A stretch of DNA of 64,000 bases from an uncultured Spirochaetota bacterium (GCA_963734495.1 CAVTHK010000006.1:32001-96000); one strand, 5' to 3'; positions 5,279 through 29,321 are shown, counted from the stretch's first letter. The notes: generated by a model from the letters alone, not told the origin. Numbers and translations are program-made.

Positions 5279-5327
5279 TGACCTGGCGCCTGCGCCAGAT
5301 CCCAAGCCCCTGTCCTCGGCGGGGCCC
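5279..5327 (-). promoter_or_regulatory. Conserved two-hairpin 5'-leader element, copy A (cupin gene)
   Basis: GGGCCCC-N10-GGGGCTT-GG-GATCTGGCG-CAGG-CGCCAGGTC-AC-AGGAGG; same architecture at 10057-10105 and 29282-29321. Confidence 0.65.
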
Positions 5328-5440
5328 ACTCGGCGGGGCCCGCGGTTGTCATCCTGTCCGCGCCACTGTATTCTGCGCGGTAGGCGTCCTGCAAGCCCGC
5401 CCGCGCTCGGGTCTCGTGCGTCTTCCGGAAGGAGGGTGCT

Positions 5441-6340
5441 ATGGTCACGTTCCCGATCGACACGAAGAATCGCAAGGTGCCTGTGATTCCTGCCAGAGGC
5501 GAGCGGCTGCGTCTGCTGATCGACACGGATGCGAAGAACGAGATCGACGACCAGTACGCCCTCGCCCTGGCGATCCACTCGCCGGACCGCTTCGACATCG
5601 AGGGGTTCGTAGCCGCCAATTTCGACAACGCCCGCGGCGGCCCCGACGGCGTCGACAAATCGGCGCGCGAGATCGAGCTGGTTCTCAAGAAGGCCGGCAT
5701 GGCGGGCCGGTGGCCCGTCAAGCGGGGCTCCGATCCGCTCCAGTACCAGTTCAAGCCGGTGATGAGCGAAGGGGTCGACTTCATCATTGAGCGTGCGATG
5801 GCGGGCACTCCGGACCGCCCCCTGTGGATCGTCGGCCTCGGGGCCGCGACCAACATGGCGTCCGCGATGCTCAAGGAGCCGCGGATCATCGAGCGCGTCG
5901 TGGTGTTCTGGCACTTCCGCACCCGCTGGCCGGAAAAGTGCTGGAACTTCAACGTCTTCGGCGACGTGCGGGCCGCGCGCCTGCTGTTCCACTCGCCGTG
6001 CTCCTTCGCGCTCTTCGACACGGGAACGCACCTGACGCTCCCCATGGAGGAGTCGGCGCAGAAGCTCGCGCCGCACGGCGAGCTCGGGCGCTACCTCCAC
6101 GAGTACCGGCTCACCGATCCCGGTTTTCAAAAGCCGACCAAGGGCTTCTACGACCTCGGCGACATCGCCGCGCTCCTCGACCCGGACCTCGCGTGCTGGG
6201 AGGAGACCGATTGCCCCGAAGTCCGCTGGGATCTGGTCTACGAGTTCACCGGGAGAATGGGGCGCATCCTGCGCTGCTACCACGTGGACCGGGACCGGAC
6301 GTTCCAGCTGCTCTTCGACAGGATCGCTGCCCGCGCGTGA
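5441..6340 (+). CDS. Inosine/uridine-preferring nucleoside hydrolase family protein
   Basis: LLIDTDAKNEIDDQYAL Asp-rich N-terminal motif, LGAATNMA, NFNVFGD, YDLGD. Confidence 0.88.
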   Translation: MVTFPIDTKNRKVPVIPARGERLRLLIDTDAKNEIDDQYALALAIHSPDRFDIEGFVAANFDNARGGPDGVDKSAREIELVLKKAGMAGRWPVKRGSDPLQYQFKPVMSEGVDFIIERAMAGTPDRPLWIVGLGAATNMASAMLKEPRIIERVVVFWHFRTRWPEKCWNFNVFGDVRAARLLFHSPCSFALFDTGTHLTLPMEESAQKLAPHGELGRYLHEYRLTDPGFQKPTKGFYDLGDIAALLDPDLACWEETDCPEVRWDLVYEFTGRMGRILRCYHVDRDRTFQLLFDRIAARA

Positions 6341-6401
6341 CCGCGGGCAGGCGAATTGAGGCGAATTGCTCCCCGCGCGGCCTTTCGGTAACTTGAGAAG
6401 C

Positions 6402-7997
6402 ATGGATCCACTGCTGCTCGTCAACGGCGATTTCATCACCATGGACCCCACCCGGCCGCGCGTCCAGGCGCTGCTCGCCGAGGGCGAGCGGATCCGGGCG
6501 ATCGGAACCGATGCCGAGGTCTCCGCCCTCGCGGCTCCCGGCGCCCTGCGCATCGACCTCGGCGGCAAGACAGCGGTGCCCGGCTTCAACGACAACCACA
6601 TCCACGCGGTGAGCGGCGGACACCACTCCCAACGGGCCCTGCTCTACGGCATGGACGCCGACGCGATCATCGCGCACCTGCGCGAGCGCCACAACGGCAT
6701 CTCGAAGGGCGGGCTGATCAGCGGTTTCGGATGGGACTACGAGACCTGCCCGAATCCGCATCGGCGCATCCTCGACGAGGCCTTCCCCGGCCATCCCGTG
6801 GTGCTGCACCAGTTCTCGGGCCACGCGGTCTGGGCGAGCTCAGAAGCGTTGCGCAGGATGCGCATCGATCGCCGGACGCCCGACCCGCCGCATGGCAGGA
6901 TCATCCGCGACGAAGCCGGCGAGCCGACCGGGGTGCTGCGCGAGATGGGGAACAACCCCTGGCTTCGCAAGCAGTTCGCGCAGCGTCATTCGCACCCGCC
7001 GTCCATCAGGAAGTACCTCCTGAAGGCGATGGAGGACTACCGCAGGCTGGGGATCACGTCGGTGCAGGACAACACGTGGTTCCCTCCCGTGCTCGGCGTG
7101 CTGGCAGCGCTGCGGCGCGAAGGCCGGCTCACGACCCGCTTCGCGTACTGGTTCCACGGCGAGAGGCGGTGGGAGGCGCTGCTGATGCGGATGCGGCGTC
7201 TGAACGACTCCTGGCTGCGTCCGGGTCCGTGGAAATACTTCCTCGACGGCACGTTCTCGGCGAGGAGCGCCTGGCTCACGGAACCTTACGCCGACGAGAG
7301 CGAGCACAGCGGCCTCGGCAAGAGCCGCGCGCAGATCCTGCCGCTGCTCGAGCCCCACGTGCGCTCGCGCGACCCCCGCGGCCGTGAGCAGGTCGCCTGC
7401 CACGCCATCGGCGACCGGGCGATCCAGGAGTACCTCGACGCGGTAGAGGAGCTCTCGGCGCGCTACCCGTGGATCACCTCGATGCGCCTGCGCATCGAGC
7501 ACGGCCAGCTCATCCGCGGCGAGGACATCCCCCGGCTTCGACGGCTCGGAGTGGTGATCTCGGCGCAGCCCCACGCCCTCGGGACGCCTGAAAAGGACGC
7601 GCGGCTTCTCGGCGCCGGACGCGCGGAGCGCGCTTACCCCTATCGGTCGCTGCTCGACGAGGGGGTGGCCCTCTGCTTCGGCTCCGACTTTCCCGGCGAG
7701 CCGACGCTCGATCCCATGCTCGGGATCCACTACGTCGTCAACCGCAGCGGTCCGGAGCGGATCACCGTCGAGGAGGCGCTGCGCTGCTACACCGTCGGGA
7801 GCGCGTACGCGGAGTTCGAGGAGGACGCCAAGGGGAGCCTCGCGCCGGGCAAGATGGCCGACATCGCGGTGCTTTCCGCGGACCCGACCGCGGTCGCGAG
7901 CGAGCGGCTCCGCGAGATCCGAGTCGAGATGACGATCTCGGGCGGTCGCGTTGTGCACCAGCTCGTGCGTGACAAAAGCGCGGCGGCGGTGACGTAG
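6402..7997 (+). CDS. Amidohydrolase (Amidohydro_3 / YtcJ-like)
   Basis: DLGGKTAVPGFNDNHIH, GEPTGVLRE, KYFLDG, CHAIGDRA, RIEHGQ, FGSDFP, KGSLAPGKMADIAVL. Confidence 0.92.
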   Translation: MDPLLLVNGDFITMDPTRPRVQALLAEGERIRAIGTDAEVSALAAPGALRIDLGGKTAVPGFNDNHIHAVSGGHHSQRALLYGMDADAIIAHLRERHNGISKGGLISGFGWDYETCPNPHRRILDEAFPGHPVVLHQFSGHAVWASSEALRRMRIDRRTPDPPHGRIIRDEAGEPTGVLREMGNNPWLRKQFAQRHSHPPSIRKYLLKAMEDYRRLGITSVQDNTWFPPVLGVLAALRREGRLTTRFAYWFHGERRWEALLMRMRRLNDSWLRPGPWKYFLDGTFSARSAWLTEPYADESEHSGLGKSRAQILPLLEPHVRSRDPRGREQVACHAIGDRAIQEYLDAVEELSARYPWITSMRLRIEHGQLIRGEDIPRLRRLGVVISAQPHALGTPEKDARLLGAGRAERAYPYRSLLDEGVALCFGSDFPGEPTLDPMLGIHYVVNRSGPERITVEEALRCYTVGSAYAEFEEDAKGSLAPGKMADIAVLSADPTAVASERLREIRVEMTISGGRVVHQLVRDKSAAAVT

Positions 7998-8034
7998 CCC
8001 CGGGGACGCGGCCCGGCCCTCGCGGGGCCCCCGC

Positions 8035-9027
8035 TCAGGCCATGCGGTCCAGCATGTCGAGCGTGACCTCGTGCTCCAGCGGCTGCCCGGCGGCCCAGCG
8101 GCGGTATTCGTCGATCATGCTGTCCGCCATGCGCCGCACTTCGTCCCCCTTGGATCCTGCTATGTGCGACGAGAGCTGGACGTTCGCAAGCGAGTACAGA
8201 GGCGAGCCCGGAGCGGGAGGCTCGGGCCACGTGACGTCGAGGAGGGCGTTCAGGTCCGGCCGCTCGCGCAGGACGGAGATCAGGTCGGCCTCCACGACCG
8301 TGGCCCCGCGTCCCGTGTTGATAAAGGTCGCGTCCTTCCTCATCATGCGGAACAGCCGTCCGTTCAGCAGGCCGGCCGTCTCGGGCAGATTTGGCGTGTG
8401 GTTGGAGACGACATAGCCGCGCTGGAACGCCTCTTCGAGCGAAACCTTTTCAGCGCCGAGGCGGGCCGCTTCGGCCGCGTCGACGAACGGGTCGTAGATC
8501 AGGACGCGCAGGTCGACGCCCGCCAGCAGCTCGATGAGCCTGCGGGCGACCTTGCCGGCCCCCAGCAGCGAGACGCTCTCCCCGTAGCATCCGGGCCCCG
8601 AAAAGAAGGGCCCGCCGCCGCGGCCTGCCCGCTCCCTGACCTCGCGCGTGTTCCGGAACCAGCCCTTGCACGACAGGATGATCTGGGACAGCGCGAGCTC
8701 GGCCACGGGGACCGCGTTGGCGGCCCAGGCGCTCGACACCTTGATGCCGCGCTCGAGGAAAGGCCGCGCGAACCCCCGCACCGAGCCGGCCGCATAGAAG
8801 ACGGCCTCGAGCGACGGCAGCCGCGCTATCCGGGCCGCGTTCAGAGGCGGCATGCCCCACGTCGAGAACACGGCCTGGATGCCCGCGAGGGACTCGGCCT
8901 CCGAACCCGCGACCACGCGCGGATGCAGGTCCGCGATCTCCGCGATCCGCTGTCGCCGCTCGCGGTCGAAGACCGCCTCGAGCCGCTCCGCGTCGTCGCC
9001 GAAGAGCGCGACCCTGCGCCGTTCCAC
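8035..9027 (-). CDS. D-isomer-specific 2-hydroxyacid dehydrogenase
   Basis: YAAGSVR, ANAVPVAE, LLGAGKVAR, FINTGRG, LDVTWPEP, SHIAGS; fused to the upstream gene in the ORF track only because of frameshifts. Confidence 0.88.
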   Translation of the reverse strand: MERRRVALFGDDAERLEAVFDRERRQRIAEIADLHPRVVAGSEAESLAGIQAVFSTWGMPPLNAARIARLPSLEAVFYAAGSVRGFARPFLERGIKVSSAWAANAVPVAELALSQIILSCKGWFRNTREVRERAGRGGGPFFSGPGCYGESVSLLGAGKVARRLIELLAGVDLRVLIYDPFVDAAEAARLGAEKVSLEEAFQRGYVVSNHTPNLPETAGLLNGRLFRMMRKDATFINTGRGATVVEADLISVLRERPDLNALLDVTWPEPPAPGSPLYSLANVQLSSHIAGSKGDEVRRMADSMIDEYRRWAAGQPLEHEVTLDMLDRMA

Positions 9028-9034
9028 CGGCGGC

Positions 9035-10044
9035 CTACCGGTACTGGTGCGGCCCGAAATCCGCCTCGTAGAAGGGCGACACGCTGTCTCCGGGAGGCAC
9101 GATCGCGTCGATCTTTGCGAGCTCGTCCCCGCTGAAGCGCACGACGGGCGCGCCCGAGGTTGTCCTCGAGCTGCTCCATGGTCCGCGGGCCGATGATCGG
9201 GCTCGTGACGCCGGGCCTCTGCGCGACCCACGCGAGAGCGAGCTGCGCCATCGTGCAGTCCTTCGATCGGGCCATCGCAGCCAGCGCCTCGACGACGTTC
9301 CAGATCGCGGCGGTCTTGCGCTCGGCCAGGCGCGGGTTGTCCGCGGTGTCGGAGTAGCGGCTCGTCCGGCGGGTTGGGGTTGCTCCGCGTGTACTTGCCC
9401 GTGAGCAGGCCTCCGGCGATCGGGCTCCAGGGGATGACCGCGTACCCGTAGGTGCGCGCCATCGGGATGAGCTCGCGCTCGACGCGGCGGTCGAGGATGT
9501 TGTACGGCGGCTGCTCCGAGACGAAGCGGTTCAGCCCCAGCTCCTTGGCGACCCAGAGCGCCTCGACCGCCTGCCACGCCGCGAACGTGCTGGTGCCGAT
9601 GTAGCGCACCTTGCCGGCGCGCACGAGGTCGTCGAGCGCCCGCAGCGTCTCGTCGATCGGGACGTCGCTCTGCGGCCTGTGGATCTGGTACAGGTCGATG
9701 TAGTCGGTCTGCAGGCGGCGCAGGCTCGCCTCGCACTGCTCGATGATGTGGCGGCGCGTGTTTCCCGATGCGTTCGGGTCCTCGTCGTCCATCTTGCCGT
9801 GGACCTTGGTGGCCAGCACGACCTTGGCGCGCTGCCTGTTGCGCTTGAGCGCCTCGCCGGTGATCTCCTCGCTGCGGCCGCGGCTGTAGACGTTCGCGGT
9901 GTCGAGGAAATTGATCCCCGCGTCGAGCGCGCGGTCGATGATCGCGTACGAGTCCTGCGGCTCCGTCCGCCTGCCGAACATCATGCACCCGAGACAGAGC
10001 TCGCTGACCTTGACGCCGGTGCGTCCCAGAGATCTGTATTCCAT
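9035..10044 (-). CDS. Aldo/keto reductase (two apparent frameshifts near 9360 and 9150)
   Basis: MEYRSLGRTGVKVSELCLG, GINFLDTANVY, SLRRLQTDYIDLYQIH, WSPIAGGLLTGKY; the tail continues as AQLALAWV...PIIGPRTMEQL and ...FYEADFGPHQYR in other frames. Confidence 0.9.
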
Positions 10045-10056
10045 CGGTCTCTCCTC

Positions 10057-10149
10057 TGACGTGGCGTCTTCGCCAGGTCCCAAGCCCCGAGTACTCGAGG
10101 GGCCCGCCGTGGCGTCTGTCGCCAGCGTCCCAAGTCCCTGCGCTCAGGG
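10057..10149 (-). promoter_or_regulatory. Conserved two-hairpin 5'-leader element, copy B (10057-10105) plus degenerate tandem copy B' (10108-10149)
   Basis: GGGCCCC-N10-GGGGCTT-GG-GACCTGGCG-AAGA-CGCCACGTC-AG-AGGAG; upstream CCCTG-AGCG-CAGGGACTT-GG-GACGCTGGCG-ACAGA-CGCCA. Confidence 0.65.
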
Positions 10150-10173
10150 GGGCGTCGTTGCGGGTCCGCTGTG

Positions 10174-10202
10174 AGTATACGAACGCGGCCGAGCCGGGTC
10201 AA
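10174..10202 (-). promoter_or_regulatory. Sigma70-type promoter of the aldo/keto reductase gene
   Basis: TTGACC-N17-TATACT. Confidence 0.7.
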
Positions 10203-10257
10203 AAAAACTGAAGGTCGACGGGCGGCCGGCCGCGCCGCGAGCGGCCGCCGCGCTCCG

Positions 10258-11076
10258 TCAGCGGGAGCGCATGGCCTCCCAGGCGCGGGCCGCGATCAGG
10301 CTGCGGACGCTGATGGCGGCGAACACGACCACTCCGCCGGCGATCGCCCACGGCCCGGGCCGCTCGCCCAGGAACACGAGCACGAGGATCGGGTTGAGCA
10401 CCGGCTCGATCATCAGGATGATCGCCGACTCGACCGCCCTCACGTGCCGGATCGCCCGCGAATAGAGCATGTTGGAGAGGCCGAGCTGCACCGTCCCGAG
10501 AAAGATCAGGGCGCCCCAGCTCGCCGCGTCCGGGGCGCGGCCGACCGCCCAGGGGGCGCAGACGACGGCCGTGATGACGTTCCCGAGGATCAGGGATCCG
10601 ACCGGAGAGCCCGCCTTCTGGTACCGAAGGAGCAGGTGCACCCAGGCGAACGCGACGCCGCTCACGATCGCGAGCACGTTGCCCCACGACCCGGCGATGG
10701 TCAGGCGGTCGAAGAAGAACAGCACGAGGCCGCCGAGCACGACCGCCAGCGAGACCCAGTCGAACCTCGAGATGCGCTCGCCGAGCAGCCAGAAGCTGAA
10801 CAGGGCCACGAAGACCGGAGCGGAGTACTGAAGGAGGATGGCGTTCGCCGCCGTGGTGAGCTTCGTGGCCGCGACGAACGTGATCATCGCGATCGCGTGC
10901 GCCGCGCCGCACAGCAGCTGCGCCGCGCTCCACTGGAAGCGCGGACCCTTCGCGGTGGCAAAGAGGAACACCGCCGCGATCACGCTGCGGATCCCCGCCG
11001 TGGCGAGGGGGCCGAGGTTCACCAGCTTGATGAACAGCCCCCCGGACGCCCACAGCGTCGCCGTCAGCGCTATCAT
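10258..11076 (-). CDS. DMT/EamA family transporter (start may lie slightly upstream)
   Basis: [47 protein letters not shown]; ~10 hydrophobic segments. Confidence 0.88.
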
Positions 11077-11185
11077 GAGGTCCGCGGCAGCGGGCTTTGT
11101 CGCAGTCGGTGTCAGAGGGTTCAGCGGCGGCTCCAGGTGCGCCGCAGTGTAGCCGGAGCGCGCCCGCGCTGTCGAGGGCCGCGCA

Positions 11186-11219
11186 GCTCCCCTGCGCTCC
11201 CCTGCGCTCCCCTGCGCTC
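11186..11219. repeat. Short tandem repeat (GCTCCCCTGC) x3.4, intergenic
   Basis: gctcccctgc gctcccctgc gctcccctgc gctc. Confidence 0.9.
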
Positions 11220-11231
11220 GCGCCTGCCGGC

Positions 11232-12612
11232 TCAGCCCTGGCCCGCACTGCCCGCCGGGCTGGACAGCGCGTAGCGCGCGGCCTCGCCCATGAGGCGCAG
11301 CGCCTCCGCGATGCGCTCGCTCTCCTCGAAGCCGTAGGAGATGCGCAGCTGGCGGCGGCCCGCCTCGACGAGCGAGCCCTTCCGGTGGACGCAGATCTCG
11401 CCGGGGATGTAGATCACGCGCGGCAGCGGCGCGCCCGGAGGGCCGTCGACCGCGGAGTCGCCCGTGCGCCGGGTGAGGAAACGGAAGAAGGGGCTGCGCT
11501 CGTGCGTCTCGACTCCGGCGAGAGTCAGGTAGAAGTAGAAGCCCGCGCGCCCCCCGCGGCACTCCTCGACCAGGCCGCCCAGGTGCCGCCTGATGTCCGC
11601 GGAGGCCGCCAGCGCCTTCTCGCGGTAGCCGGCGCGCACTCTCGCGATCTGAGCGTCGATGGCGTTGTCCAGCAGCCAGCTCGCGATCTCCTGGTTGACC
11701 AGCGGCGCGCTGAAGCCGAGGTCGCTCGTGCTCTGAACCACGGCGTCGAGCAGGGGCCCGTCGCGGCCCACGAGGTAGCCGATGCGCAGACCGGGGGCGA
11801 GGATCTTCGACAGCGTGCCGAGCTCGTACACCAGCCCCGCCTCGTCCCACGCGAAGCCCGACGCGGGCGCCGCGACGGCCGGATCGTGCACCAGGTCCTC
11901 GTACGCGCGGTCGAAGACCACCGGCACGCGGCGGCCCAGCGCGCGCGAGAGGCGCGTGGCGAGGCGCACAATGCCTTCGCGCTCCCGGTCGGCGAGGATC
12001 GTGGAAGTCGGGTTGCTCACGGTCACGAAATAGAAGAAGGACACCTCGGACTGCACCGGCCCGAGCGCGGCCACCGCGGCTTCGACGTCCGCGGCGTGAA
12101 CGCCGTCTGCGGCTTTCGGGCACGGCGAGGACGCGGAAGCCCTTGCGCTCCAGGGTGTTGCAGTAGATGTAGTACATCGGGTCGGTGGTCACGACGATGC
12201 CCGGCGGCAGGGAGTCCGCGAGCGAGGCGAGGAGGCTGGTGACCCCATTGGCGCCGACGACGATGCGCCGGTCTGCGAGCAGCCGCTCGTCGAGGCCGCC
12301 GGCCTGGTGGCGGAGAAGGTAGCTTCGGATGGAGGCGATCAGGTTGGGCGAGCCGGCGGGGCCGCCGTAGTTGAGCGCGTTCCTGTACCGGACCGGGTCT
12401 GCCAGCACCTGCTCGAGCGCCTCGAGCACCAGGCCGCGCGGGATGGTGTGCTCGTTCACGTAGCCGACGCCGAGGTTGATGTCGACGTCCTCGCGGAAGT
12501 CGGCGGCGAACTCCGCCATCATGCGAGCTACGGGCGCGGGGGCCCGCGACGCCCACCCGTAGGCCGAAAGCGATTCCCCGAGCTGCAGAGTGCCGCTCCC
12601 TGTCAACGCCAT
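11232..12612 (-). CDS. PLP-dependent aminotransferase class I/II (2-aminoadipate transaminase-like); apparent frameshift(s) near 12070-12120
   Basis: [44 protein letters not shown] (PLP lysine), LRISYG. Confidence 0.85.
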
Positions 12613-12683
12613 GCGGCGATCCTACCACGCAGCCGGCGGGCGGGCCAACGGCCCGGATCCCGCGCGCGGACGCATCCGCGGAG

Positions 12684-14341
12684 CTACAACAGACTCTCGC
12701 GCCCGAGCCCGAAGAAGCGGTTGACGAAGAACAGGCTCAGTCCCGTGACCGCGAGAAGGATCGTCGACATCGCGGAAGCGGGCCCGAAGTAGCCGTCGAG
12801 CACCGAGAGGTAGATGCGGATGGGCATCGTCATCGTGTGCCCCACGTAGAGAAGGATCGAGGCCGAGATCTCGTTGATGGCCGTGACCCAGCTCAGGATC
12901 GCGCCCGAGATGACCCCCGGAAGCATGAGAGGCAGCGTCACCTTGCGGAACGTGCGCGCGGGCGGCGCTCCGAGGTTGATGCCGGCCTCCTCGAGCGCCG
13001 GGTCGATCTGCTTGAGAATCGAGGCGCCCGAGCGCACCGCGTACGGAAGGCGCCTGATGAAGTACGCGAGGATCACGATCGTCGCTGTGCCCAGCAGGAA
13101 CAGCGGCTTGCGGTTGAACGCGATGATGAACCCGATGCCGATCACTGTTCCGGGCACGATGTACGGAATCATGAGCAGGGGATCCAGAACCTGGGCCGGG
13201 GCGGTCTTGCGGCGGCTGATGACAAAACCGAGCAGGGTGCCGATGACGACGATGAGCGACCACGGATGCGGTCGAGAAGAGAAGGCTGTTCGTGATGGTC
13301 TTGGGGACCTCGTGGAAGACCCTCGCGTAGCTCTCCGAGACTGAGCCCCGGCTGGAAAACCGGCCCCCTGGTTCTGCGGAACGAGAAGTACACGACGATC
13401 GCGAGGGGGATCGCGCTCAGGCCCACGATCAGGTAGCTCACAAAGTGCGCCCAGAAAGCCGGGAGGCCGTGAAGACGCTTGACGACCGGGCGATTGATCA
13501 GCGTGCTGGAGTACTTGCGCCGTCCCGCGGCGTACCGCTGCAGGAAGATCACGGCGGAGGCGCACAGGATGAGGAAGATGCTGACGGTCGAGGCGAGGCC
13601 CGGGCGCTCTCCGACCTCGCTGGTGAACAGGTTGTAGGCAAGCGTCGGCAGGACCCGGTAGTTCGCCGCCGATGATCATCGGCGTGTCGAAGTTGGACAG
13701 ACACATCATGAAGACGAGCAGCGCGCCCGCGGTGACGGACGGGAGGACCAGGGGCAGGGTGACGCGGAAGAACTTGCGGAGCCCCCTGGCCCCCAGGTTC
13801 TCCGCCGCCTCCTCGAGCGAGCGGTCGACCGTGGACAGCGCCCGACGACGCGAGGAGGAACACGTACGGGTAGTGATGCAGCGCGTAGACCAGGATGATC
13901 CCGACCGGACCGTAGATCGGCGGGAGCTGCAGCCCGATGTCGAGGAGCGCCGTGCGAAGAACCCCCGAGCGGCCCAGGAGGATGATCCAGGAGTAGGCGC
14001 CGATGAACGGCGGCGACAGCAGCGCGAGAACGGCAAACGTCGCGAGGATCGAGCGGCCGGCGATGCGGAAGCGCGTCGTCAGGAACGCGAGCGGCACGCC
14101 GAGGAGAGTGGCGCCGATCGTGCCGCCCACGGCGACCACGATCGTGTTGAGAAACGCGACCCGGTAGTAGCTCTTCCCGAAGAACTCGCGCGTAGTTGGC
14201 GAGGGAGAGCGCGCCGGTCTCCTTGTCCAGGAAGCTGAACTTGAAGATGTTGACGAGCGGGTAGACCAGGAAGAAGGCGACAATCGCGTAGCCGAGGACC
14301 GTGACAAACGTCCAGAAGCCCGGCCGTTCCCCGCGTCTCAC
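12684..14341 (-). CDS. Iron(III)/thiamine-type ABC transporter permease with duplicated domains (several apparent frameshifts)
   Basis: Two EAA loops (LEEAAENLGA, LEEAGINLGA), SPPFIGAYSWI, PYIVPGTVIGIG spread over different frames. Confidence 0.85.
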
Positions 14342-15414: not shown

Positions 15415-15640
15415 CTCCCCGCCCCAACGAGTGCCATTGAGCTGAAATGAGCGCGTGCCGCCGCCGGGGCCCCGCGGAGACCCTCCGCGGGGCGGACCCG
15501 GGGCAGGCGGCACCGAGCCTGTCGGACTTACGGCAGGCGGTCGCTCGCGCCCCTGCCGGTTGTCCCGGCGCCCGGCGAGTACGCCGGGTCAAAGCCTGGC
15601 GGGTACGCCAGGTCAGGGCACACGGCGGACCGCGGCCGGG

Positions 15641-16623
15641 CTAGAACCCGAGCTCCATCTTCAGATCGTTGAACCTTTTCAGGTACACGTCTTTGTTCCG
15701 GGCGGCCGCGCCAAAGTCATACGGAAGGGTCTTGACCTGGCTGAGCGCGGGAAGCCCCGGAGGGCTCTTGCCGTCGATGCGCACGGGCCGGCGCAGCATC
15801 TTGTCCACGAGAAAGTCCTGCGTGCGCCTTCGACAGGCACCAGTCGATAAAGATCTTTGCGGCGTCCGGGTGCGGAGCGCCCTTGACGAGCGCGATCCCG
15901 TCGGGCGCCGCGATCACGCCCTCCTCGGGGTAGACGATCTTGACCGGGCCGCCGCCCTGCACAAAGCGGAACGCGTTGTCCTCGAGGGTGATGCCGATGG
16001 CCGCCTCGCCGTCGTTCACGTACCTCGGCACCGCGCCGGAGCTCGACGGAAATGAAGAAGTTGGCCGCGATCCCCCTGTAGGTGTCCCATCCCCTGTCCT
16101 TGAACGCGAGGAGGACGTTGTTGAGCTGCATGTACGAAGAGCCGGACTTGTCGGGCGTCGCCGAGCTGATCTTGCCCTTCCACTTCTTGTCGAGCAGGTC
16201 CGCCCACTTCTTCGGCATCTGGCTCTCCGGGACGAGCTTTGTGTTGACGATCAGCACGTTCATGATGCCGGTGTAGGGCAGCCAGTTCGTCCCGACCTTG
16301 AACACGGGGTCGATCTTGTCCCAGTCCTTGGGCACGTAGCCCTCGAGCACGTTGTTGCTCGCCTCGAGCTGCTCCCCGCCGATGCTCCAGATCACGTCGC
16401 ACTGCGGGTTGTTCGCCTCGGCGACGACCCGCTTGATGACGTCGCCCGAAGCGAGCTTGACGAACTCCAGCGTGATGCCCGTGTCGGCCTTGAACCGCGG
16501 CACCATGCCGGCGATGATGTCGTCCTCGTGCGCCGTGTAGGCCACGACCTTCCTCGCCTGCGCGCCCAGCCCGACCAGCGACACGACGAGCAGAACCCCC
16601 AGAACCCACGCACGCTTTCTCAT
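15641..16623 (-). CDS. Fe3+-type ABC transporter substrate-binding protein (apparent frameshifts near 16050 and 15830)
   Basis: Signal peptide MRKRAWVLGVLLVVSLVGLGAQA; EANNPQCDVIW, PKKWADLL, PDKSGSSY, YPEEG..APDGIALVKGA; tail ends ...KMELGF*. Confidence 0.85.
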
Positions 16624-16657
16624 CAAGGACTCCTTTCCCACGTTGTGAGCTTCCCCA

Positions 16658-19331: not shown

Positions 19332-19498
19332 CTGCCGCTCCTTCCGCCCCGGACCCTCGTCCCGGCGCAAGGCAACTCATACCACTTCGAGGCAGGTCGA
19401 CTCAACTCGCCCATGGCGCCGACGCGGCCGCCGTGGTCCGGCATCTGTTCCCGGCGGGTCGGGCATGCTATCCTCGACCCGACGCCGCCCGGGAGGAA

Positions 19499-20734
19499 AT
19501 GCCGATGTCGAACGAGAGCGTGCCTCTGGGCAAAAGGATCGCCGGGTTCTTCGGCCTGAATGCGAGCATGGTCGCCATGATCACGCTCGTCGTGTTCATC
19601 GGGCTCGGGGAAAAGATGGCCGAGCGCTTCCTTCCCCTGTACCTCCTCGCCCTCGGCGGCTCCGTCTACGCCGTCGGGTTCCTCAACGCGATGGACAACC
19701 TGCTGTCCGCCCTGTACTCGTTTCCCGGCGGTTGGGTGTCCGACCGCATCGGGTACAAGCGCGCGCTGATCCTCTTCACGCTCGTCGCGATGGCCGGCTA
19801 CCTGCTGGTGATCTTCGTCCCGACCTGGTGGGCCGTGCTCGTCGGCGCCGTCTTCTTCATCTCGTGGACCGCGATCTCGCTGCCGGCGGTCATGAGCCTG
19901 GTCGCGCAGGTCATGCCGACCGACCGGCGCATCATGGGCGTGACCGTGCACTCGTTCGTGCGCCGCATCCCCATGGCGCTCGGCCCGATCCTCGGCGGCG
20001 TGCTCATCGGCATCTACGGCAAGGTCGCCGGCGTGCGCCTCGCGTTCGTCGCGGCGCTCGCCCTGGGCGTCGTCGGCATCCTGTGCGTCCAGCTCCTGAT
20101 GAAGGACGAGACGAAAAAGAAGAAGGCGGCCTCCGGCAGCCTCCTCGCGAGCCTTCGGGGCATCAGCCCCGCCCTTCGCAACCTCCTCGTGTCGGACATC
20201 CTCATCCGGTTCGCCGAGCAGATCCCGTACGCGTTCGTCGTCGTGTGGGTCGTCGAGAACAACGGCCTGAGCGCGCTCGAGTTCGGCGTGCTCACGACGG
20301 TCGAGATGGTCACCGCGATGCTGGTCTACATCCCGGTGGCGTACCTGGCGGACCGGTCGACCAAGAAGCCCTTCGTGCTGATCACCTTTGGCTTCTTCAC
20401 GCTGTTCCCGCTGGTGCTGCTCGGGTCGCGCACGTTCCCGATGCTCGTCCTCGCGTTCGTGATCCGCGGCCTCAAGGAGTTCGGGGAGCCGACGCGCAAG
20501 GCGCTCATCATGGACCTCGCCCCCGAGGACGCGAAGGCCCTGACGTTCGGCGCGTACTACCTCGTGCGCGACGTGATCGTGTCGATCGCCGCGCTCTCGA
20601 GCGCGTTCCTGTGGAGCATCTCGCCCGCGACGAACTTTCTCGTCGCGGCGGCGTGCGGCGCGGTGGGCACGCTCGTGTTCGCCATCTTCGGCCGCAACGC
20701 GACCCGCGCGGAGGACGCACCACAAGCCGCCTGA
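19499..20734 (+). CDS. MFS transporter
   Basis: GGWVSDRIGYKR and AYLADRSTKK motif-A copies, ~12 TM segments; GGAGG RBS. Confidence 0.9.
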   Translation: MPMSNESVPLGKRIAGFFGLNASMVAMITLVVFIGLGEKMAERFLPLYLLALGGSVYAVGFLNAMDNLLSALYSFPGGWVSDRIGYKRALILFTLVAMAGYLLVIFVPTWWAVLVGAVFFISWTAISLPAVMSLVAQVMPTDRRIMGVTVHSFVRRIPMALGPILGGVLIGIYGKVAGVRLAFVAALALGVVGILCVQLLMKDETKKKKAASGSLLASLRGISPALRNLLVSDILIRFAEQIPYAFVVVWVVENNGLSALEFGVLTTVEMVTAMLVYIPVAYLADRSTKKPFVLITFGFFTLFPLVLLGSRTFPMLVLAFVIRGLKEFGEPTRKALIMDLAPEDAKALTFGAYYLVRDVIVSIAALSSAFLWSISPATNFLVAAACGAVGTLVFAIFGRNATRAEDAPQAA

Positions 20735-21190
20735 GCGCGGGCGGCACGCGGCACCCGCAGCCTCTTGATCAGCGGCGATCTGTGCGCGTTACACGGACGC
20801 CAACTTTCTTGGGTCAAAGTGCGCGCATCAAAACTCACCGAGGCGCCATCGCGGCACGCTCCGGTGGTCCAGCCGGCCTGAAGCGCCGCACGGCGGCCGG
20901 CCTCTACCCGGAAGGGCTTTCGCCACTTCGCGTGGCGGAGCCGCGCGCGCGAAGCCTTGTGGGGCGCATCCGACCCGGCTTTCGACGCCGGGTTGTTCTC
21001 GCAGGAACTCCGCCGGCGAGCCGTGTCAGGTCCCGCCGGCCTTGCGGGGAAGTCGCGGCTTACGGAGCGGGCGGGCTGGGGCGGATAAGACCGCGCTCAG
21101 CGATGACGCAGGGAGCTCTCGCCGCGCGATGCGTCGCGACTCGAGAGAAGCCTGTCCTCGCCGATCAAGACACGCTATACTGGAGTCGGG

Positions 21191-21415
21191 ATGAGCTACA
21201 TCGACAGAATCACAATTGACCCGAATCGCCGCTCAGGGAAGCCGTGCATCCGTGGGACGCGCATCACCGTCTACGACGTGCTGGAGTACCTGGCTGGGGG
21301 CATGTCGATAGAAGAGATCCTGGCCGATTTCGTCGAGTTGCACCGAGAGGACATACAGGCGGTGCTTGAGTTCGCGGCCGATCGCGAGCGCCGACTCATG
21401 ACCGTCTCAGCATGA
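21191..21415 (+). CDS. DUF433 domain antitoxin
   Basis: RITIDP...GKPCIRGTRITVYDVLEYLAGGMSIEEILADF..L.REDIQA signature. Confidence 0.92.
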   Translation: MSYIDRITIDPNRRSGKPCIRGTRITVYDVLEYLAGGMSIEEILADFVELHREDIQAVLEFAADRERRLMTVSA

Positions 21416-21756
21416 AGCTTCTGCTCGACGCGAACCTGTCTTGGAAGCTCGTCGCTGCCGCTCGCAGGTGGTTCCCGGGTTCGGAACACGTCGTCGCGGC
21501 CGGCCTTGGCGGGGCGACGGACCGAGACATCTGGGAGTACGCAAAGTCCAACGGGTTCGCCATTCTGTCGAAGGACACTGACTTTCGTCAGCTCAGCTTT
21601 CTATACGGCGCGCCGCCTAAGGTCATCTGGCTGAACATCGGCAATCGACCGACTTCTGAGATTGCAGCCATGCTCGAGCAGCAGCATGGGGCGGTGCAGC
21701 GCTTTGACGACTCGGCCGAGGCACTCCTCGTCATCGCTGCGGCAGAAAGGCTTTAG
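21412..21756 (+). CDS. DUF5615 family PIN-like toxin (VapC45-like)
   Basis: MKLLLDANLS, ATDRDIWEYA, ILSKDTDF, GAPPKVIWL; ATGA overlap with the antitoxin gene. Confidence 0.9.
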   Translation: MKLLLDANLSWKLVAAARRWFPGSEHVVAAGLGGATDRDIWEYAKSNGFAILSKDTDFRQLSFLYGAPPKVIWLNIGNRPTSEIAAMLEQQHGAVQRFDDSAEALLVIAAAERL

Positions 21757-21802
21757 AGAGCGCGACGCGGCGATTTGCCGGACGACAGCGTACGCCCAGG
21801 GC

Positions 21803-25016
<3,214 letters not shown>

Positions 25017-25095
25017 GATGCCCTCGCTTCCATGGATGGAAGCGCCCGCGCGCACATGGACGTAGCAGCGCGCGGGCAGCCTCGAAGCGTGGTCA

Positions 25096-25124
25096 ATGAT
25101 ACCATACATTTGTTTGGTATTCAA
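25096..25124 (-). promoter_or_regulatory. dnaE2 promoter with candidate LexA operator in the spacer (25103-25116)
   Basis: TTGAAT-ACCAAACAAATGTATGG(17)-TATCAT; box matches the lexA box at 12/14. Confidence 0.75.
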
Positions 25125-25208
25125 GAGCAGCGACGGCACGCTCGCGGGCGGACAGCGTGCAGTGTACAATCGGCACGAAAAGTCTTGGATCCAAAAGGAA
25201 GGGAATTC

Positions 25209-25805
25209 ATGAAACAACGGCAGAGCCTCGTGATCGGTGTCCTCCTGGCCGTCGCATTCTCGGCAGGCGCGCAGGACTTCTCGCAGGGCCTCGGAGTCCG
25301 GGGCGGCATCGGCACGGACATCACATTCGGAGGCGTCGCTTGCGGGGTCGGAGTCAACAAGCTCCTGGGCGAAGAGCTCGAGATCGGCCTGCAATTCTAC
25401 TATGGAAGCTTCGAGGAGACGGACAAGGAAGCAGTCAACACCTACGTCGACACGACGAAAGTGACCGCTTTCACCGCTCTCGCGAACCTTCTCTACGGGT
25501 ACCACCGCGGCGAAAGCGGATTCTTCTTTCTCACCGGCGTAGGTCTCGGCTATCTCGGGGTCAACTGGGAAGAGAGGAGCGACACCGACATGACCCTCGG
25601 CACGCTTCTCCCGGGCGGCGGAAGCAAGCAGACGTTCGACGGCAGCGCCGGAGGGCTCATTCTGAACCTGGGCGCCGGATACGCGATTCCCGGCGGCATG
25701 GACGTGCGGTTCGAGGTCCCCATCGTGATCGCGATCGGGGACACCGGCGGAGCGTCGCACATAATACCGCTGTTCACGCTCACCGCCGGATACCGTTTCC
25801 GCTAG
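25209..25805 (+). CDS. Outer-membrane beta-barrel domain protein
   Basis: Signal peptide ending AFSAGA-Q, Gly/aromatic alternating strands, C-terminal TLTAGYRF(R). Confidence 0.75.
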
Positions 25806-25991
25806 ATCGGGCACGGTCCGCCGTGCCCAGACCCGCGGAAGCGGCGGGAACGGCGGTCAGCCGCAAGTCCGACAGGCTCATGGACGCGGGCCCGCGGACG
25901 CCTGGACGCTGATGGAAAAGGGCCGGCGGGCTGCCGCGAACGGCCCTTCGCCAATCCGGTGAGCCGGAGGAGCGCACTGCTGCTTGCCCAC

Positions 25992-26486
25992 TCAGGAGCG
26001 GGCAAGCAGCAGCTGCATCAGGCGTACGTCGATGTAGCGGCCGAACTTGTAGCCGACTTCGCTCATGGTGCCGACGAGGCGGAAGCCGGCGCGCTCGTGC
26101 AGGCGCACGCTCGGCTCGTTGTCGCCGGCGATGCGCGCGAGGACCGTGTGCAGCCGCGCCTCGCGGCCCGCGGCGAGCAGCTGCTCCATGAGCCGGCCCC
26201 CGATCCCCTGGCCGCGGCGGCCCTGCTCGACGTAGATCGAGATCTCGGCCGTGCCGTCGTACGCGGGCCGGTCCGACCACCGCGAGAGCGACGCCCAGGC
26301 GACGACGGCGGCGCCGTCGACGGCGACGAGGACGGGGTGGCGCGCGTCGTGAAGCGCGAGCCAGTCCACGATCTGCCGCTCCGTCCTCGGCTCCGTGTCG
26401 AAGGTGGCCGTGCTGCTGACGACCGCGTCGTTGTAGATCTCCGCGATCGCCGCGCAATGCTCGCTGGCAGCCGGTGCGATTTGCAT
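25992..26486 (-). CDS. GNAT N-acetyltransferase (phosphinothricin/methionine-sulfoximine acetyltransferase type)
   Basis: IAEIYNDAV..STATFD, SIYV..RGQGIG, NEPSVRLHERAGF, EVGYKFGR. Confidence 0.9.
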   Translation of the reverse strand: MQIAPAASEHCAAIAEIYNDAVVSSTATFDTEPRTERQIVDWLALHDARHPVLVAVDGAAVVAWASLSRWSDRPAYDGTAEISIYVEQGRRGQGIGGRLMEQLLAAGREARLHTVLARIAGDNEPSVRLHERAGFRLVGTMSEVGYKFGRYIDVRLMQLLLARS

Positions 26487-26517
26487 GCGTTCTCCTATGT
26501 CGGCGCCGCCGCGGGCC

Positions 26518-27993
26518 TCAATCCACGTATCCCTGCAGCACCCAGCCGCGCGTGCCCAGGTCGCGGTAGAGCCACTCGATCCGCCCCTCGGGCCCCTCGG
26601 CAAAGTAGTATTCGCGATCCGCCTCGCCGCCGTTCCACCAGGAGCCCGACAGGGCGTAGGGGCCTCCCACAAAGCGACTCGCGGAGCGGCCCGCGAGCGG
26701 CCGCGCGCCCAGAGGCCGCGGCGCCTCCAGGATGCGGCGCACCAGCACGGGAGCCTGCGCAGCCGGCGTCTCGTCGCCGCCCCCGCCCGCGCGCTCCGGC
26801 TCCGGGCGCGCCTCCACCCACGCGTACTGCCGCTCCGGAAGGTGCTCGTCCACCGGCTGCGCCTGCACCACCGCGTCGTTGCCGAGCTCGGCCCGCAACC
26901 GCGCAAAGGCGCGGGCCGCGGCGGCGAGATCGCGCCTGGGGCGCCTGCGGAAGAGCTCCGGCTGCACATCCTGCGCCTTTGTCCGCTCCGCGTCGAGCGC
27001 GATGCGCACGACCGGCGAGCCGAGGGCAAGCGAGGCGAGCCGCAGGTCGAGGAGCTCTAAAAGAAGGCTGCGGCCCCGCGTCGGTTCCGCAGGCTTCAGG
27101 CTCTCCCGCAGCGTCTCCCCGCGCTCCAGGCCGAGCGAAAGGGAGATCTCGACGGCGAGCTCGCCCTTGTGCCGCAGGTCCGCGATCAGCCGGTCGAGGA
27201 GCGCGGCCGCGTGGAGCATCAGCCGGCCGCGGTCGGCCTCGGGCGCGGCGAGCCGGCGCGCGAGCGCGAGCGGCTCAGCCGGCGGATCGGCCTGGATCGG
27301 GAGCGCCAGGCCGCCGGAGGCGAAGCGCCAGGCCGCCTCGGCCTCGGCCCCGTAGCGGCGGAGCAGGCCGCCCGGCGGCAGCCGCAGGAACGCCTCCACC
27401 GTCCGCACGCCCAGCCGCGCGAAGCGCTCCTCGAGCCGCGGCTCGAGGCCCAGCACGGCGAGCGGCGCGTCGAGGGCGAGCCGCCGCTCCTCCTCGGGGC
27501 TGGCGAGCACGCGGGCGCCCCGTCGGCCGCGCGCCGCGGCGTAGCACCCGAAGCGCGTAAAGCCGACCGCCGCCCGCGCGGCCAGCTCCGCGCCCTGCAG
27601 CGCCTCCAGCACCGCGCTCACCCACCCCTCGAGCGAGCCGTAGAGCTCCTCGAGGCCGGAGGCGCCCACCCAGAAGACGCCGGGCTCTTCGCGCTTCGGC
27701 TCCACCTGCGGGCTCGCCCCGCGCAGCAGGCCGCCGATGAGCTCGACGCCCGCCGCGATCTCGTCCGCGGCGACGGGCGCGGCCCGCAGCTCCGGCGCCA
27801 GCGCCAGCGCGGTGGCGTAGCGCATCCCCGCGGCCACGCCCGCCCGCCGCGCCCGGCCGTTGGCTGCCAGCACGGGCGCGAGCGGCCTGTCCTCGGCCAC
27901 GACGGCGGCGGGGTGGCGGCGCCAGGCCTTTTCCCGCCGCAGCAGAAGCTGCAGCGCGAGCTGCGGCACGTCAACGCAGGCCAGCCGGCCCAT
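26518..27993 (-). CDS. imuB: ImuB, Y-family polymerase-like mutasome subunit
   Basis: ARRAGVAAGM.YATALAL.P, LGVRTV, HLPE, SWW..DREYYF..WLYRD..WVLQGYVD; position in the lexA-imuA cassette. Confidence 0.9.
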   Translation of the reverse strand: MGRLACVDVPQLALQLLLRREKAWRRHPAAVVAEDRPLAPVLAANGRARRAGVAAGMRYATALALAPELRAAPVAADEIAAGVELIGGLLRGASPQVEPKREEPGVFWVGASGLEELYGSLEGWVSAVLEALQGAELAARAAVGFTRFGCYAAARGRRGARVLASPEEERRLALDAPLAVLGLEPRLEERFARLGVRTVEAFLRLPPGGLLRRYGAEAEAAWRFASGGLALPIQADPPAEPLALARRLAAPEADRGRLMLHAAALLDRLIADLRHKGELAVEISLSLGLERGETLRESLKPAEPTRGRSLLLELLDLRLASLALGSPVVRIALDAERTKAQDVQPELFRRRPRRDLAAAARAFARLRAELGNDAVVQAQPVDEHLPERQYAWVEARPEPERAGGGGDETPAAQAPVLVRRILEAPRPLGARPLAGRSASRFVGGPYALSGSWWNGGEADREYYFAEGPEGRIEWLYRDLGTRGWVLQGYVD

Positions 27994-28630
27994 GGCAGCT
28001 CTCCCCGCAGCGCCAGCCCGCGCCCCGGCGCTTGTCCTTGAGCGGCCGCAGCTCGCAGCGCCAGCGGAAATCCCCGAGCCTCTCGCTGCGGCACAGCGCG
28101 CGCAGGCTCACGGTAGAGCTGTCGCCGATCGGGCCCGCGCCCGCGAGGCAGAGCAGCGCCGTGTCGTGCCTGCGCGCAAGCTGCGCGAGGCGCGCCTGGG
28201 CCGAGGCGCGGACGCGGGCGGCCGCGAGCCCCGCCAGGTCCACGACGACGAGGCCGAAGGCGCCGGACCGCAGCAGCCGGTCGGCCGCGCGCGCGGCCTG
28301 CGGCGCGTCGGCGACGCGCACCACCGGCAGCCGGTCGAGCGCCACGCCGTTGGCCGCCATGTCGGGGGGAAAGAAGACCGCGGTGCCCGCGGCGATCCAG
28401 CAGGCAGGCTCGCCGCAGGACTGCGCTTCGAGCACGAGACGGCAGGCGAGGGAAAGGCTCCCCTGCCCCGCGAGCTCGGTGAGCCGTCCGGCCAGCGCGG
28501 CCAGGCTCCAGGGCCGTTCGCCGGAGAGCCGCTCCTCCAGCGCCGCCGCGCGGACCAGCCTGAGGAACGGCGTCGCCTCGCGTGCGGAGGGCGTGGACGC
28601 CGATACGGACATTCCGGGCATCGCAGCCAT
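27971..28630 (-). CDS. imuA: ImuA / RecA-like mutasome accessory protein
   Basis: GRLTELAG, FFPPDMAANGVALDRL, AADRLLRSGAFGLVVVDL; lies between lexA and imuB. Confidence 0.85.
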   Translation of the reverse strand: MAAMPGMSVSASTPSAREATPFLRLVRAAALEERLSGERPWSLAALAGRLTELAGQGSLSLACRLVLEAQSCGEPACWIAAGTAVFFPPDMAANGVALDRLPVVRVADAPQAARAADRLLRSGAFGLVVVDLAGLAAARVRASAQARLAQLARRHDTALLCLAGAGPIGDSSTVSLRALCRSERLGDFRWRCELRPLKDKRRGAGWRCGESCHGPAGLR

Positions 28631-28643
28631 CGGCGCGTAACCT

Positions 28644-29270
28644 CTACGTGATCGGCCCCTCGTAGGAGCGCCGCACCTCGAGCACCTTGCCGAGGATGGA
28701 GAAGCGCTCGCCGTCCGACGCATCCGGCACGATCGGCTCGTAGGCGGGATTGGCGGGGTGCAGCTCCACCCTTCCCTTTACGATTCTGAAGGTCTTGACC
28801 GTCGCCTCCTCGCCTGATAGAGCCACGACGATGTCGCCCGGCTCCGCCGTCGGCTGCTGCCGCACGACCACGACGTCGCCCTCGAGGATCCCCGCGTCGC
28901 GCATGCTGTCGCCCTTGACCCGCAGGGCGAAGAGGCGCTCCTGCGGCGTCCGCGACCGGACCGCGAGCATGCCCTGAGCATCCTCGATCGCCGTGGTGAG
29001 CGGACCGGCCGCGACGCGGCCGAGCAGGGGGATCGAGACCACGGGTGCGGCGCCCCCGCCGGCCAGGCGGTAGGCCCGCGCCTTGTGCGGCTCCTTGGCG
29101 AGGCGCCCCTCGGCCACGAGCGCCTCGAGGTGCTCGCGCGCGCTCTGCACCGAACGGAAGCCGAACGCCTCCTGCACCTCGCGCACCGTCGGGGGAGAGC
29201 CCGCCGCAAGACGGTCGCGGACAAACGCGAGCACCCGGCCGCGGGTCTCGCCCGGCTCGCTGTACGCCAT
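28644..29270 (-). CDS. lexA: SOS repressor LexA
   Basis: PPTVREV wHTH, IPLLGRVAAG cleavage site, VKGDSM (Ser), EATVKTF (Lys). Confidence 0.96.
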   Translation of the reverse strand: MAYSEPGETRGRVLAFVRDRLAAGSPPTVREVQEAFGFRSVQSAREHLEALVAEGRLAKEPHKARAYRLAGGGAAPVVSIPLLGRVAAGPLTTAIEDAQGMLAVRSRTPQERLFALRVKGDSMRDAGILEGDVVVVRQQPTAEPGDIVVALSGEEATVKTFRIVKGRVELHPANPAYEPIVPDASDGERFSILGKVLEVRRSYEGPIT

Positions 29271-29281
29271 ACTCGCTCCTA

Positions 29282-29321
29282 TGACCTGGCTTCGCCAGGT
29301 CCCAAGCCCGCTTGCGGGCCC
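29282..29321 (-). promoter_or_regulatory. Conserved two-hairpin 5'-leader element, copy C (lexA)
   Basis: GGGCCC-GCAAGC-GGGCTT-GG-GACCTGGC-GAA-GCCAGGTC-AT-AGGAG-N5-ATG. Confidence 0.65.

Follow-up and report, generated by a model that had tools for sequence, protein, structure and literature searches.

A start-codon-linked family of double-hairpin repeats in an uncultured Spirochaetota genus

This work concerns a short element with two hairpins that recurs in a 64,000-nucleotide (nt) stretch of DNA from an uncultured Spirochaetota bacterium (GCA_963734495.1, CAVTHK010000006.1:32001-96000), referred to here in its full length as the window. A reading made from the sequence alone (the sequence-only reading) had placed three full copies and one degenerate tandem copy on the minus strand, each full copy fused to the Shine-Dalgarno sequence (SD) of a gene (one encoding a cupin, one encoding an aldo/keto reductase, and lexA). 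The question raised by this locus is why one structure should stand in front of three unrelated genes. Two broad answers had been offered: a cis-regulatory RNA in its own right (for example, a thermometer or the binding site of a protein) or a tiny mobile unit that delivers a ribosome-binding site (RBS). The comparative data presented here give no support to the first and agree with the second. The element is probably a genus-specific, non-autonomous interspersed repeat that occupies the slot directly 5' of the SD and is primarily selfish or neutral; it may have side effects on expression, and it is probably not a switch dedicated to a regulon.

The window corresponds to positions 32001-96000 of contig C6 in a genome designated G000 (5.38 Mb, 68% G+C, 18 contigs, 83% complete). 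The sole other genome of the genus that was examined, G001, is 99% complete. Both are metagenome-assembled genomes (MAGs), and both encode FlaA, a spirochaetal sheath protein for which 0 of 14 control genomes gave a match. Within G000, the 13-nt core of the element, CTTGGGAYCTGGC, has 17 exact occurrences. For searches of greater sensitivity, two covariance models were employed. The first, R1, includes the SD and was built from a MAFFT alignment of 23 element copies that was not fitted to a model (A1); with 150 of ~6,000 first-look candidates scored in G000, it gave 67 matches at E ≤ 1. The second, R2, is free of the SD and stops at the GUC that ends the second hairpin. R2 recovers the R1 loci, with 72 matches at E ≤ 0.1 and 58 units at ~41 loci at E ≤ 1e-4, so that the three to four copies of the sequence-only reading are members of a sizeable genomic family. 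The covariance models were preferred over a loose structure-aware hairpin scan, which returned 2685 matches that were mostly spurious. As had been suspected, the element does not correspond to a known Rfam family: at gathering thresholds, the window gave no element match and a sole match to a group II intron domain, and at E ≤ 1, eight copy-bearing loci gave no element match and one weak, unrelated match elsewhere in locus L024.

The element is linked to start codons rather than to promoters. The R2 matches at E ≤ 1e-4 fall into two classes, terminal units at a start codon and internal units of arrays whose last member is such a terminal unit. At this threshold, the SD-free search of G000 revealed no orphan copies, one locus being cut by the end of its contig. 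To gauge the association, the reading frame at each locus was picked by the G+C content of third codon positions (GC3), and an in-frame ATG, GTG, or TTG was required after the GGAG core, opening a reading frame (ORF) of at least 110 codons. Such a start was present at 35 of 40 loci, with a spacing of 5 to 9 nt in 34 and of 1 nt in one. Of the other five loci, three have shorter ORFs in the supported frame. Among all AGGAG sites of G000, 1528 of 17457 (8.75%) pass a comparable test, and against this background 35 of 40 gives P = 4e-32. The distance from the second hairpin to AGGAG is 2 nt in nearly all genomic copies, almost all of which carry a consensus SD. The sense orientation noticed in the window holds across the family, and the fixed spacing across nearly all of it; no exception to the link with start codons was seen among ~40 loci, and the downstream genes have no theme in common.

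Both hairpins are supported by covariation. In A1, 97.6% of the cells of the second hairpin (P2) are paired, and three of its pairs show compensatory changes (CG 11, UA 7, and GC 2 at one of them); for the first hairpin (P1), the paired fraction is 74.6%, and four positions show such changes. The covariation score of A1 was not reached in any of 500 column shuffles, and sliding the 3' partners by 1 to 3 columns left 27 to 47% of cells paired. A larger alignment of 63 copies, drawn from both genomes plus one metagenome contig (L044) and fitted to the model, so that it leans toward the model, has 90.2% of cells paired and changes on both sides at 17 of 19 pairs; here too, 0 of 500 shuffles reached the score, and slid partners were 33 to 46% paired. 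The impression of two hairpins with conserved stems and variable loops, gained from a handful of copies, is thus borne out across the family.

A unit measures 47 to 52 nt and consists of the GC-rich hairpin P1, a near-invariant junction (CUUGGGAC), and the hairpin P2 with its 4-nt loop. The stem of P1 has up to 10 pairs, including two basal G.U pairs, and its loop, closed by G-C, is mostly AGUA or AGGA. In P2, 6 pairs close a loop in which AAGA and AGGA predominate. GGGAC is the junction sequence in 51 of the 63 copies. In terminal units, P2 gains three outer pairs (GAC/GUC), beyond which come two nt, AGGAG(G), and, after a short spacer, the start codon. The consensus drawn up from the window copies, GGGCCC..GGGCUU-GG-GAYCUGGC..GCCASGUC-NN-AGGAG, holds. 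Besides the basal G.U pairs, the 63 copies contain 35 C.A mismatches versus 10 G.U pairs. When eight leaders were folded, P2 was predicted in all eight and P1 wherever its stem is perfect, with the SD and start codon unpaired for the most part; the sole contact, at the first G's of the SD, is with an optional, weak CUUG/UAGG extension.

Units also occur in arrays. Internal units lack the GUC-NN segment and are joined head to tail through ...GCCA-N-(G/A)GAG-GGCCCC. Counting all matches at E ≤ 0.01, arrays of 2 to 5 units are present at 11 loci; the array at C10:299438 is that of another hairpin family. Long forms of ~77 to 85 nt, represented by 10 R2 matches, carry a 25-nt module (a P1-like hairpin plus UCUACGA) within the P2 loop, and deleting this module restores a canonical P2. 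Two copies have a similar module within the P1 loop. Many units have GAGG or GGAG at their 5' edge.

The surroundings of the copies are varied. The sequence-only reading had placed the element downstream of promoters at lexA and the reductase; such an arrangement holds for some copies, which start a few nt to a few tens of nt past -10-like boxes, but not for the family, since the 240 nt upstream look like same-strand coding sequence at 24 of 44 loci (opposite strand at 4, uncalled at 16) and several copies start at, or a few nt from, the stop codon of the upstream gene. Where promoters are present, they lie outside the element, and the spacer and start codon vary between loci. A Pfam scan of the 40 downstream ORFs (E ≤ 1e-5) gave matches for 27 over unrelated functions; the choice of the longest ORF mis-framed at least one of the 40 (the cupin) and may affect some of the 13 without a match. 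The genes encode sugar kinases, several dehydrogenases, DapA, 6-phosphogluconate dehydrogenase, an aminotransferase, and components of ABC transporters, as well as RidA, CutA1, an Fe-S assembly protein, a glyoxalase, and LexA.

Some ORFs behind elements in G000 are far longer than their Pfam domain. An FGGY kinase begins at residue 286 of 734 (C9:44696-46900), an OTCase N-domain lies within 955 residues (C15:127548-130415), and a DNA ligase begins at residue 528 of 997 (C10:3268-6260). At such loci, neighboring genes may have been joined, or the start may have been called on another gene.

Outside G000, the element is confined to its genus. R1 gave 5 matches in G001 with strict filters and 9 at E ≤ 1 when this genome was searched alone, and none in 39 genomes from 7 other families of the order. 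A relaxed pattern matched 23 times in G000 and 4 times in G001; among the 90 other genomes of the order, 4 had one match each, none of them a hairpin, and a reversed-pattern control gave 7 singles, so these matches are no better than the control. The element is present in 2 of 92 genomes of the order. A stricter pattern run over ~185,000 species genomes matched only the G001 contig, apart from one chance match in coding DNA. Metagenome contigs contributed one true copy (L044). Among the pattern matches in public collections, L037 (a coding sequence), L043 (no model match), and L045-L047 (E 0.12-0.18) were set aside as chance. The copies in G001 have the same architecture with other stem sequences, i.e., they are species-specific variants.

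Positions of the element differ in 6 of 7 orthologous comparisons between G000 and G001. In G001, lexA (83% identity), the reductase (75%), and the glyoxalase (76%) have orthologues that lack the element, keep the promoter, and carry a native SD in its normal location; a model search of the corresponding G001 loci (L039, L041, and L088) gave 0 matches, and at the reductase only 14 nt separate the -10 box from the start codon. Conversely, three element-bearing genes of G001 have orthologues in G000 (94, 84, and 87% identity) without it, and neither R1 nor R2 gave a match at these G000 sites. The sole gene with a copy in both species is dapA (82%), where the G001 copy occupies the corresponding position and has diverged (25 bits, E 7e-4). 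At one filled/empty pair, the L024 locus, AGGAG stands on either side of the array. Array length varies as well: L044 is the same locus as G000 C16:199.5k (87% DNA identity over ~1.1 kb) and carries one unit versus two. Other genes were not suited to such pairing. CutA1 and the L051 ORF had no G001 match at E ≤ 1e-20, the search of G001 with the ABC ATPase gave only a 60% paralogue, and the genes behind L022, L028, and L030 had in G000 either no match or matches of 32 to 45% only.

As a side observation at the locus shared with L044, the gene behind the two-unit array in G000 (C16:199750-199830) is open for just 37 codons, and L044 differs from it by small indels. This short ORF at C16:199.7k is probably a frameshift or an assembly error in G000.

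The element is one member of a wider superfamily of nested hairpin repeats that populates G000. In this genome, a GAGTAC apex with at least 5 further perfect pairs is shared by 70 hairpins, which fall into several flank families. The other families share a CG-AGUA-CG apex and differ in their flanks, which follow the schemes GCCAUC-hairpin-CCAGGGCGC and hairpin-UCAAAGC (examples lie at C10:6402-6590 and C13:424900-425091); two of them, with 22 and 6 copies, show no orientation rule relative to neighboring genes. Hairpin-plus-tail modules of 26 nt are repeatedly found exactly after GAGUA in the loop of another hairpin, an arrangement that looks like site-specific self-targeting. The window itself contains a double hairpin of the superfamily at 15564-15614 on the plus strand.

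Restriction to one genus, species-specific variants, different host genes in the two species, variable arrays, nested modules, and unrelated downstream genes suggest a proliferating repeat rather than an anciently conserved regulator. The superfamily and the non-orthologous positions likewise fit the mobile, RBS-delivering unit that the sequence-only reading had offered as its second option. According to the model we favor, copies would arise by insertion or replacement at or beside GGAG-like SDs, as suggested by the GAGG/GGAG edges of the units and by the pair with AGGAG on both sides of its array, and arrays would grow afterward by tandem duplication. The element would be co-transcribed as a 5' leader or an intercistronic spacer, and it would survive because the consensus SD and the start codon stay unpaired, keeping the gene expressed. 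The hairpins might further protect the message at its 5' end and act as an insulator between the RBS and the sequence upstream; judging from the anatomy, an effect on expression by either route is plausible, and a general effect on translation or mRNA stability is possible. The strict position and orientation would reflect either targeting to SD-like sites or the survival of only those copies that supply a working SD. The lack of orphans in neutral intergenic DNA, the GAGG/GGAG edges, and the AGGAG-flanked pair favor targeting.

Several observations weigh against a primarily selfish or neutral repeat. No clean target-site duplication was seen in the filled/empty comparisons, and at lexA, the reductase, and the glyoxalase the native leader has been replaced, not simply interrupted. 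No transposase or other mobilizing enzyme was identified in G000 or G001; PF01797 (Y1/RAYT) gave 0 matches in either genome versus matches in 6 of 14 control genomes, a negative that rests on MAGs, where multi-copy insertion sequence (IS) genes often go missing. The total lack of orphans needs a very specific target or selection and could be read as a sign of function. At dapA, hairpins are kept in both species, with the P2 loop retained and the stem changed, which is what purifying selection on structure would give. Finally, the two basal G.U pairs of P1 are conserved in 44 to 47 of the 63 copies.

A rival idea is that of a selected, general-purpose 5' leader, i.e., an mRNA stabilizer or RBS insulator that is retained for its benefit to expression, with hairpins that guard the (processed) 5' end against 5'-end-dependent decay and leave the SD and start codon open irrespective of the upstream sequence. 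We consider this rather unlikely. It would account well for the fixed 2-nt distance and the consensus SD in almost all copies, for the mostly unpaired SD in predicted folds, for the lexA -10 box that would put a hairpin at the very 5' end of the transcript, for the preserved structure at dapA, and for the missing orphans. However, a leader kept for its benefit sits poorly with positions that differ in nearly all orthologous comparisons and with restriction to one genus, and the element-free orthologues, with the same promoters and their own SDs, mark it as dispensable. A functional role does not readily explain nested modules or arrays that reach 5 units, and the excess of C.A over G.U outside the basal pairs does not indicate the sense RNA as the selected strand. 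That same mismatch pattern suits pairing at the level of DNA equally with pairing at the level of RNA, and it can be counted toward a REP/BIME-type repeat moved by a RAYT or an IS200/IS605-type, palindrome-associated element. An enzyme acting on single-stranded DNA would then read the hairpins and insert beside the complement of the SD, fixing both position and orientation. IS200/IS605 elements insert on one side of a short target, and such insertion would yield strict orientation; GC-rich hairpin units in mosaics with conserved loops and variable stems are in keeping with this proposal, as are the 25- to 26-nt hairpin-plus-tail modules placed precisely within the loops of other hairpins. Yet a Y1 transposase is found in neither genome, the units run head to tail rather than in the inverted pairs typical of REPINs and BIMEs, internal junctions lack the GUC-AU tail that serial insertion beside AGGAG would leave, and the other hairpin families of G000 follow no orientation rule. 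On balance, we regard this explanation as unlikely.

Regulation in trans and coupling between genes fare worse. The element could serve as a binding platform for CsrA or another RNA-binding protein, its GGA motifs placing the downstream genes under global translational control. Both genomes encode CsrA, the SD gives a second GGA ~26 nt from the one in the common GGGAC junction, and arrays would provide several sites. High-affinity CsrA sites, however, usually lie in hairpin loops, and GGA is present in just 17 of 63 P1 loops and 28 of 63 P2 loops; the pairing of P2 in terminal units involves part of the junction GGA. With downstream genes that share no theme and positions that are not conserved between species, such a platform appears very unlikely. 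Translational coupling of the kind proposed for MIRUs, in which a short ORF in the repeat hands ribosomes to the downstream start, would agree with a unit of near 48 nt, head-to-tail arrays, sense orientation, and the many copies that lie between co-directional genes and abut the upstream stop. The unit nevertheless has no conserved start codon, and its only recurrent stop, the TAG in AUAGGAG (25 of 40 terminal copies), lies several nt before the start and never overlaps it. Many copies follow promoters with no upstream gene, and the full SD makes coupling unnecessary. We would be surprised to find this explanation correct.

A bolder form of the repeat hypothesis can be advanced tentatively, and we give it only a small chance: the element could be a mobile "RBS cassette" that homes to SDs, with GGAG-type sites or their single-stranded DNA complement as the insertion target. 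It would install a structured leader with a consensus SD ahead of arbitrary genes, and its own GGAG-like 5' edge would be re-targeted to build arrays. If this were true, a transposable element would be targeting the translation-initiation signal itself, and genes would be naturally re-equipped with a uniform initiation region; host genes might also come under common post-transcriptional control, e.g., through CsrA or 5'-end-dependent decay. The family is compact and shows clear covariation, no start-codon exception at ~40 loci, turnover between sister species, variable arrays, and nested modules. Its compactness, covariation, start-codon link, and turnover make it a good system for asking whether targeting or selection places repeats at translation starts, and it is also suited to asking how a hairpin clamp adjacent to the SD acts on expression. 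For annotation, the family carries a warning: covariation in a structured 5' leader that recurs across a genome is no proof of a riboswitch-like regulator.

Small repeats that carry an RBS have been described in very few lineages, namely, as REP2 in Neisseria, as IR repeats in Borrelia, and, in a different manner, as MIRUs. A literature search over full texts, supplementary files excluded, returned no description of the present family. REP2 repeats are described as 120 to 150 bp long, present in 26 copies, and located immediately 5' of genes, with two stem-loops, a promoter, an RBS, and an ATG (Delihas 2011, PMC3184786); the same account has them in sense orientation, lacking terminal inverted repeats and a known mobilizing enzyme, and assigns such features to the IR-A/IR-B repeats of Borrelia plasmids as well (PMC3184786). 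Like these repeats, the element lies directly upstream of ORFs in sense orientation, carries an RBS, has two stem-loops, and is present in a few dozen copies, and, as with Borrelia, its genomes are those of spirochaetes. Compared by description, it differs from REP2 in its length (47 to 52 nt, or ~77 to 85 nt in the long form), in forming head-to-tail arrays and accepting nested modules, in having a spacer and start codon that vary by locus, and in lacking a promoter and an ATG; the missing promoter is in line with the many copies that are intercistronic.

MIRUs are described as repeats of 40 to 100 bp in 40 to 50 copies, often in tandem and variable in number, intergenic within operons, co-transcribed, and oriented with the genes (PMC3184786, PMC12548453). 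These accounts also report absence from the homologous site in a relative, insertion at start codons, an ORF that at either end overlaps the neighboring gene (-4 coupling), and direct repeats of four nt at filled sites (PMC3184786, PMC12548453). The element shares with MIRUs the tandem units in intergenic regions of operons, the orientation, and the varying copy number, but it has no internal ORF with a conserved start, and it places a full SD before the gene. As for direct repeats, AGGAG stands on both sides of the array at the L024 pair, and three other pairs show a replaced leader. To our knowledge, the mechanism of spread is understood for none of REP2, the Borrelia IR repeats, and MIRUs.

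With REPs and BIMEs, the element has in common short, GC-rich, imperfect palindromes with conserved loops and variable stems, an extragenic location, and mosaic clusters. REPs, unlike the element, usually lie 3' of genes, often as inverted pairs, have no fixed relation to an SD, and travel with a RAYT gene; they are transcribed and affect mRNA stability and, near a stop codon, the translation of the upstream gene. A functional analogy only can be drawn to synthetic RBS insulators and natural 5' stabilizers, in which a stable hairpin lies directly upstream of an exposed SD; natural 5' stabilizer hairpins include the ompA leader and the Bacillus 5' stabilizers. In contrast to ROSE and fourU thermometers, in which a weak helix hides the SD, the SD of the element lies outside P2 and is mostly unpaired in the eight folded leaders. 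From these descriptions, the element would appear to resemble known RBS-bearing repeats in niche and orientation and to differ from them in size, missing parts, arrays, and nesting.

Within the window, which was scored by R2 with filters off, the three full copies and the degenerate unit were recovered on the minus strand where the sequence-only reading had seen them, and domain matches confirmed the identity of the three downstream genes. All full copies follow the same order of GUC, two nt, AGGAG, a short spacer, and a start codon. U-tracts and terminator-like sites are absent at these loci, and a reading of the hairpins as terminators was rejected. No RNA run was found to contain the sequence of window positions 4500-10500.

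The lexA copy spans 29283-29321 (42.2 bits; R2 match 29283-29325). Its P1 is GGGCCCG-CAAG-CGGGCUU, its junction is GG, and its P2, GACCUGGC-GAA-GCCAGGUC, is recovered in the predicted fold. The initiation region that follows (29268-29282) comprises the linker AU, the SD AGGAG at 29276-29280, the 5-nt spacer CGAGU, and the ATG at 29268-29270. Promoter-like sites were found for both lexA and the reductase, as previously noticed. That of lexA, TTGACT-17-TATTCT, lies at 29326-29354 on the minus strand and is conserved in G001; its -10 box ends at 29326, 4 nt ahead of the element, which would place the start of the transcript at the first few bases of P1. The spacer that separates the -35 box from the -10 box contains the palindrome CATACATATGTATG (29332-29345, minus strand), in place of which the G001 lexA promoter has GAACATTTGTATG. 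This palindrome is a candidate LexA operator of unusual sequence for the lineage.

The reductase is preceded by two units on the minus strand. The terminal unit (10058-10105; 71.2 bits, R2 match 10058-10109) has P1, a CUUGG junction, and a P2 with one C.C mismatch. Upstream of it lies the degenerate, internal-type tandem unit (10110-10158; 21.5 bits, E 0.0034), which lacks the GUC-NN-AGGAG tail and joins the next unit via GCCAC-GGC-GGGCCCC. The initiation region (10042-10057) consists of the linker AG, the SD AGGAG at 10051-10055, a spacer, and the ATG at 10042-10044. Upstream of the two-unit array, at 10174-10202 on the same strand, is the promoter-like TTGACC-17-TATACT, which is conserved in G001. 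The reductase frame (window ~8035-10044, minus strand) is open for 669 codons; its Aldo_ket_red match ends at profile position 211 of 291 (residue 228), a 2-Hacid_dh_C domain follows at residues 463-629, and the G001 orthologue changes frame after residue 228. Two genes have probably been fused here in G000, by an assembly error or a frameshift.

The cupin copy spans 5280-5327 on the minus strand (53.3 bits; R2 match 5280-5330), with P1 GGGCCCCGCCGAGGACAGGGGCUU and P2 GAUCUGGCG-CAGG-CGCCAGGUC, which includes one U-G pair. The initiation region (5262-5279) consists of the linker AC, the SD AGGAGGAGGA, and the ATG at 5262-5264; the ORF occupies 4905-5264, and its product, read from the second ATG (5264), matches Cupin_2 with E 1.7e-18. 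No promoter-like site was found for this copy on the strand of the gene. Directly upstream of it, at 5328-5341 on the minus strand, lies a 14-nt partial duplicate of the 5' half of P1, GGGCCCCGCCGAGU, which resembles the remnant of an aborted or partly deleted unit.

Contigs from four metagenome runs were short and shallow. One X2 contig links 5263 to 5340, with 11 other letters replacing the element at the cupin locus, and one X3 contig steps back from 10108 to 10062. These contigs might represent an empty site and an extra unit, respectively, but at 85% likeness they may stem from different copies or organisms and were not counted. Elsewhere in the window, the sequence at 52322-52458 on the minus strand corresponds to group II intron domains D1-D4 (RF02003, 92.1 bits), which are unrelated to the element.

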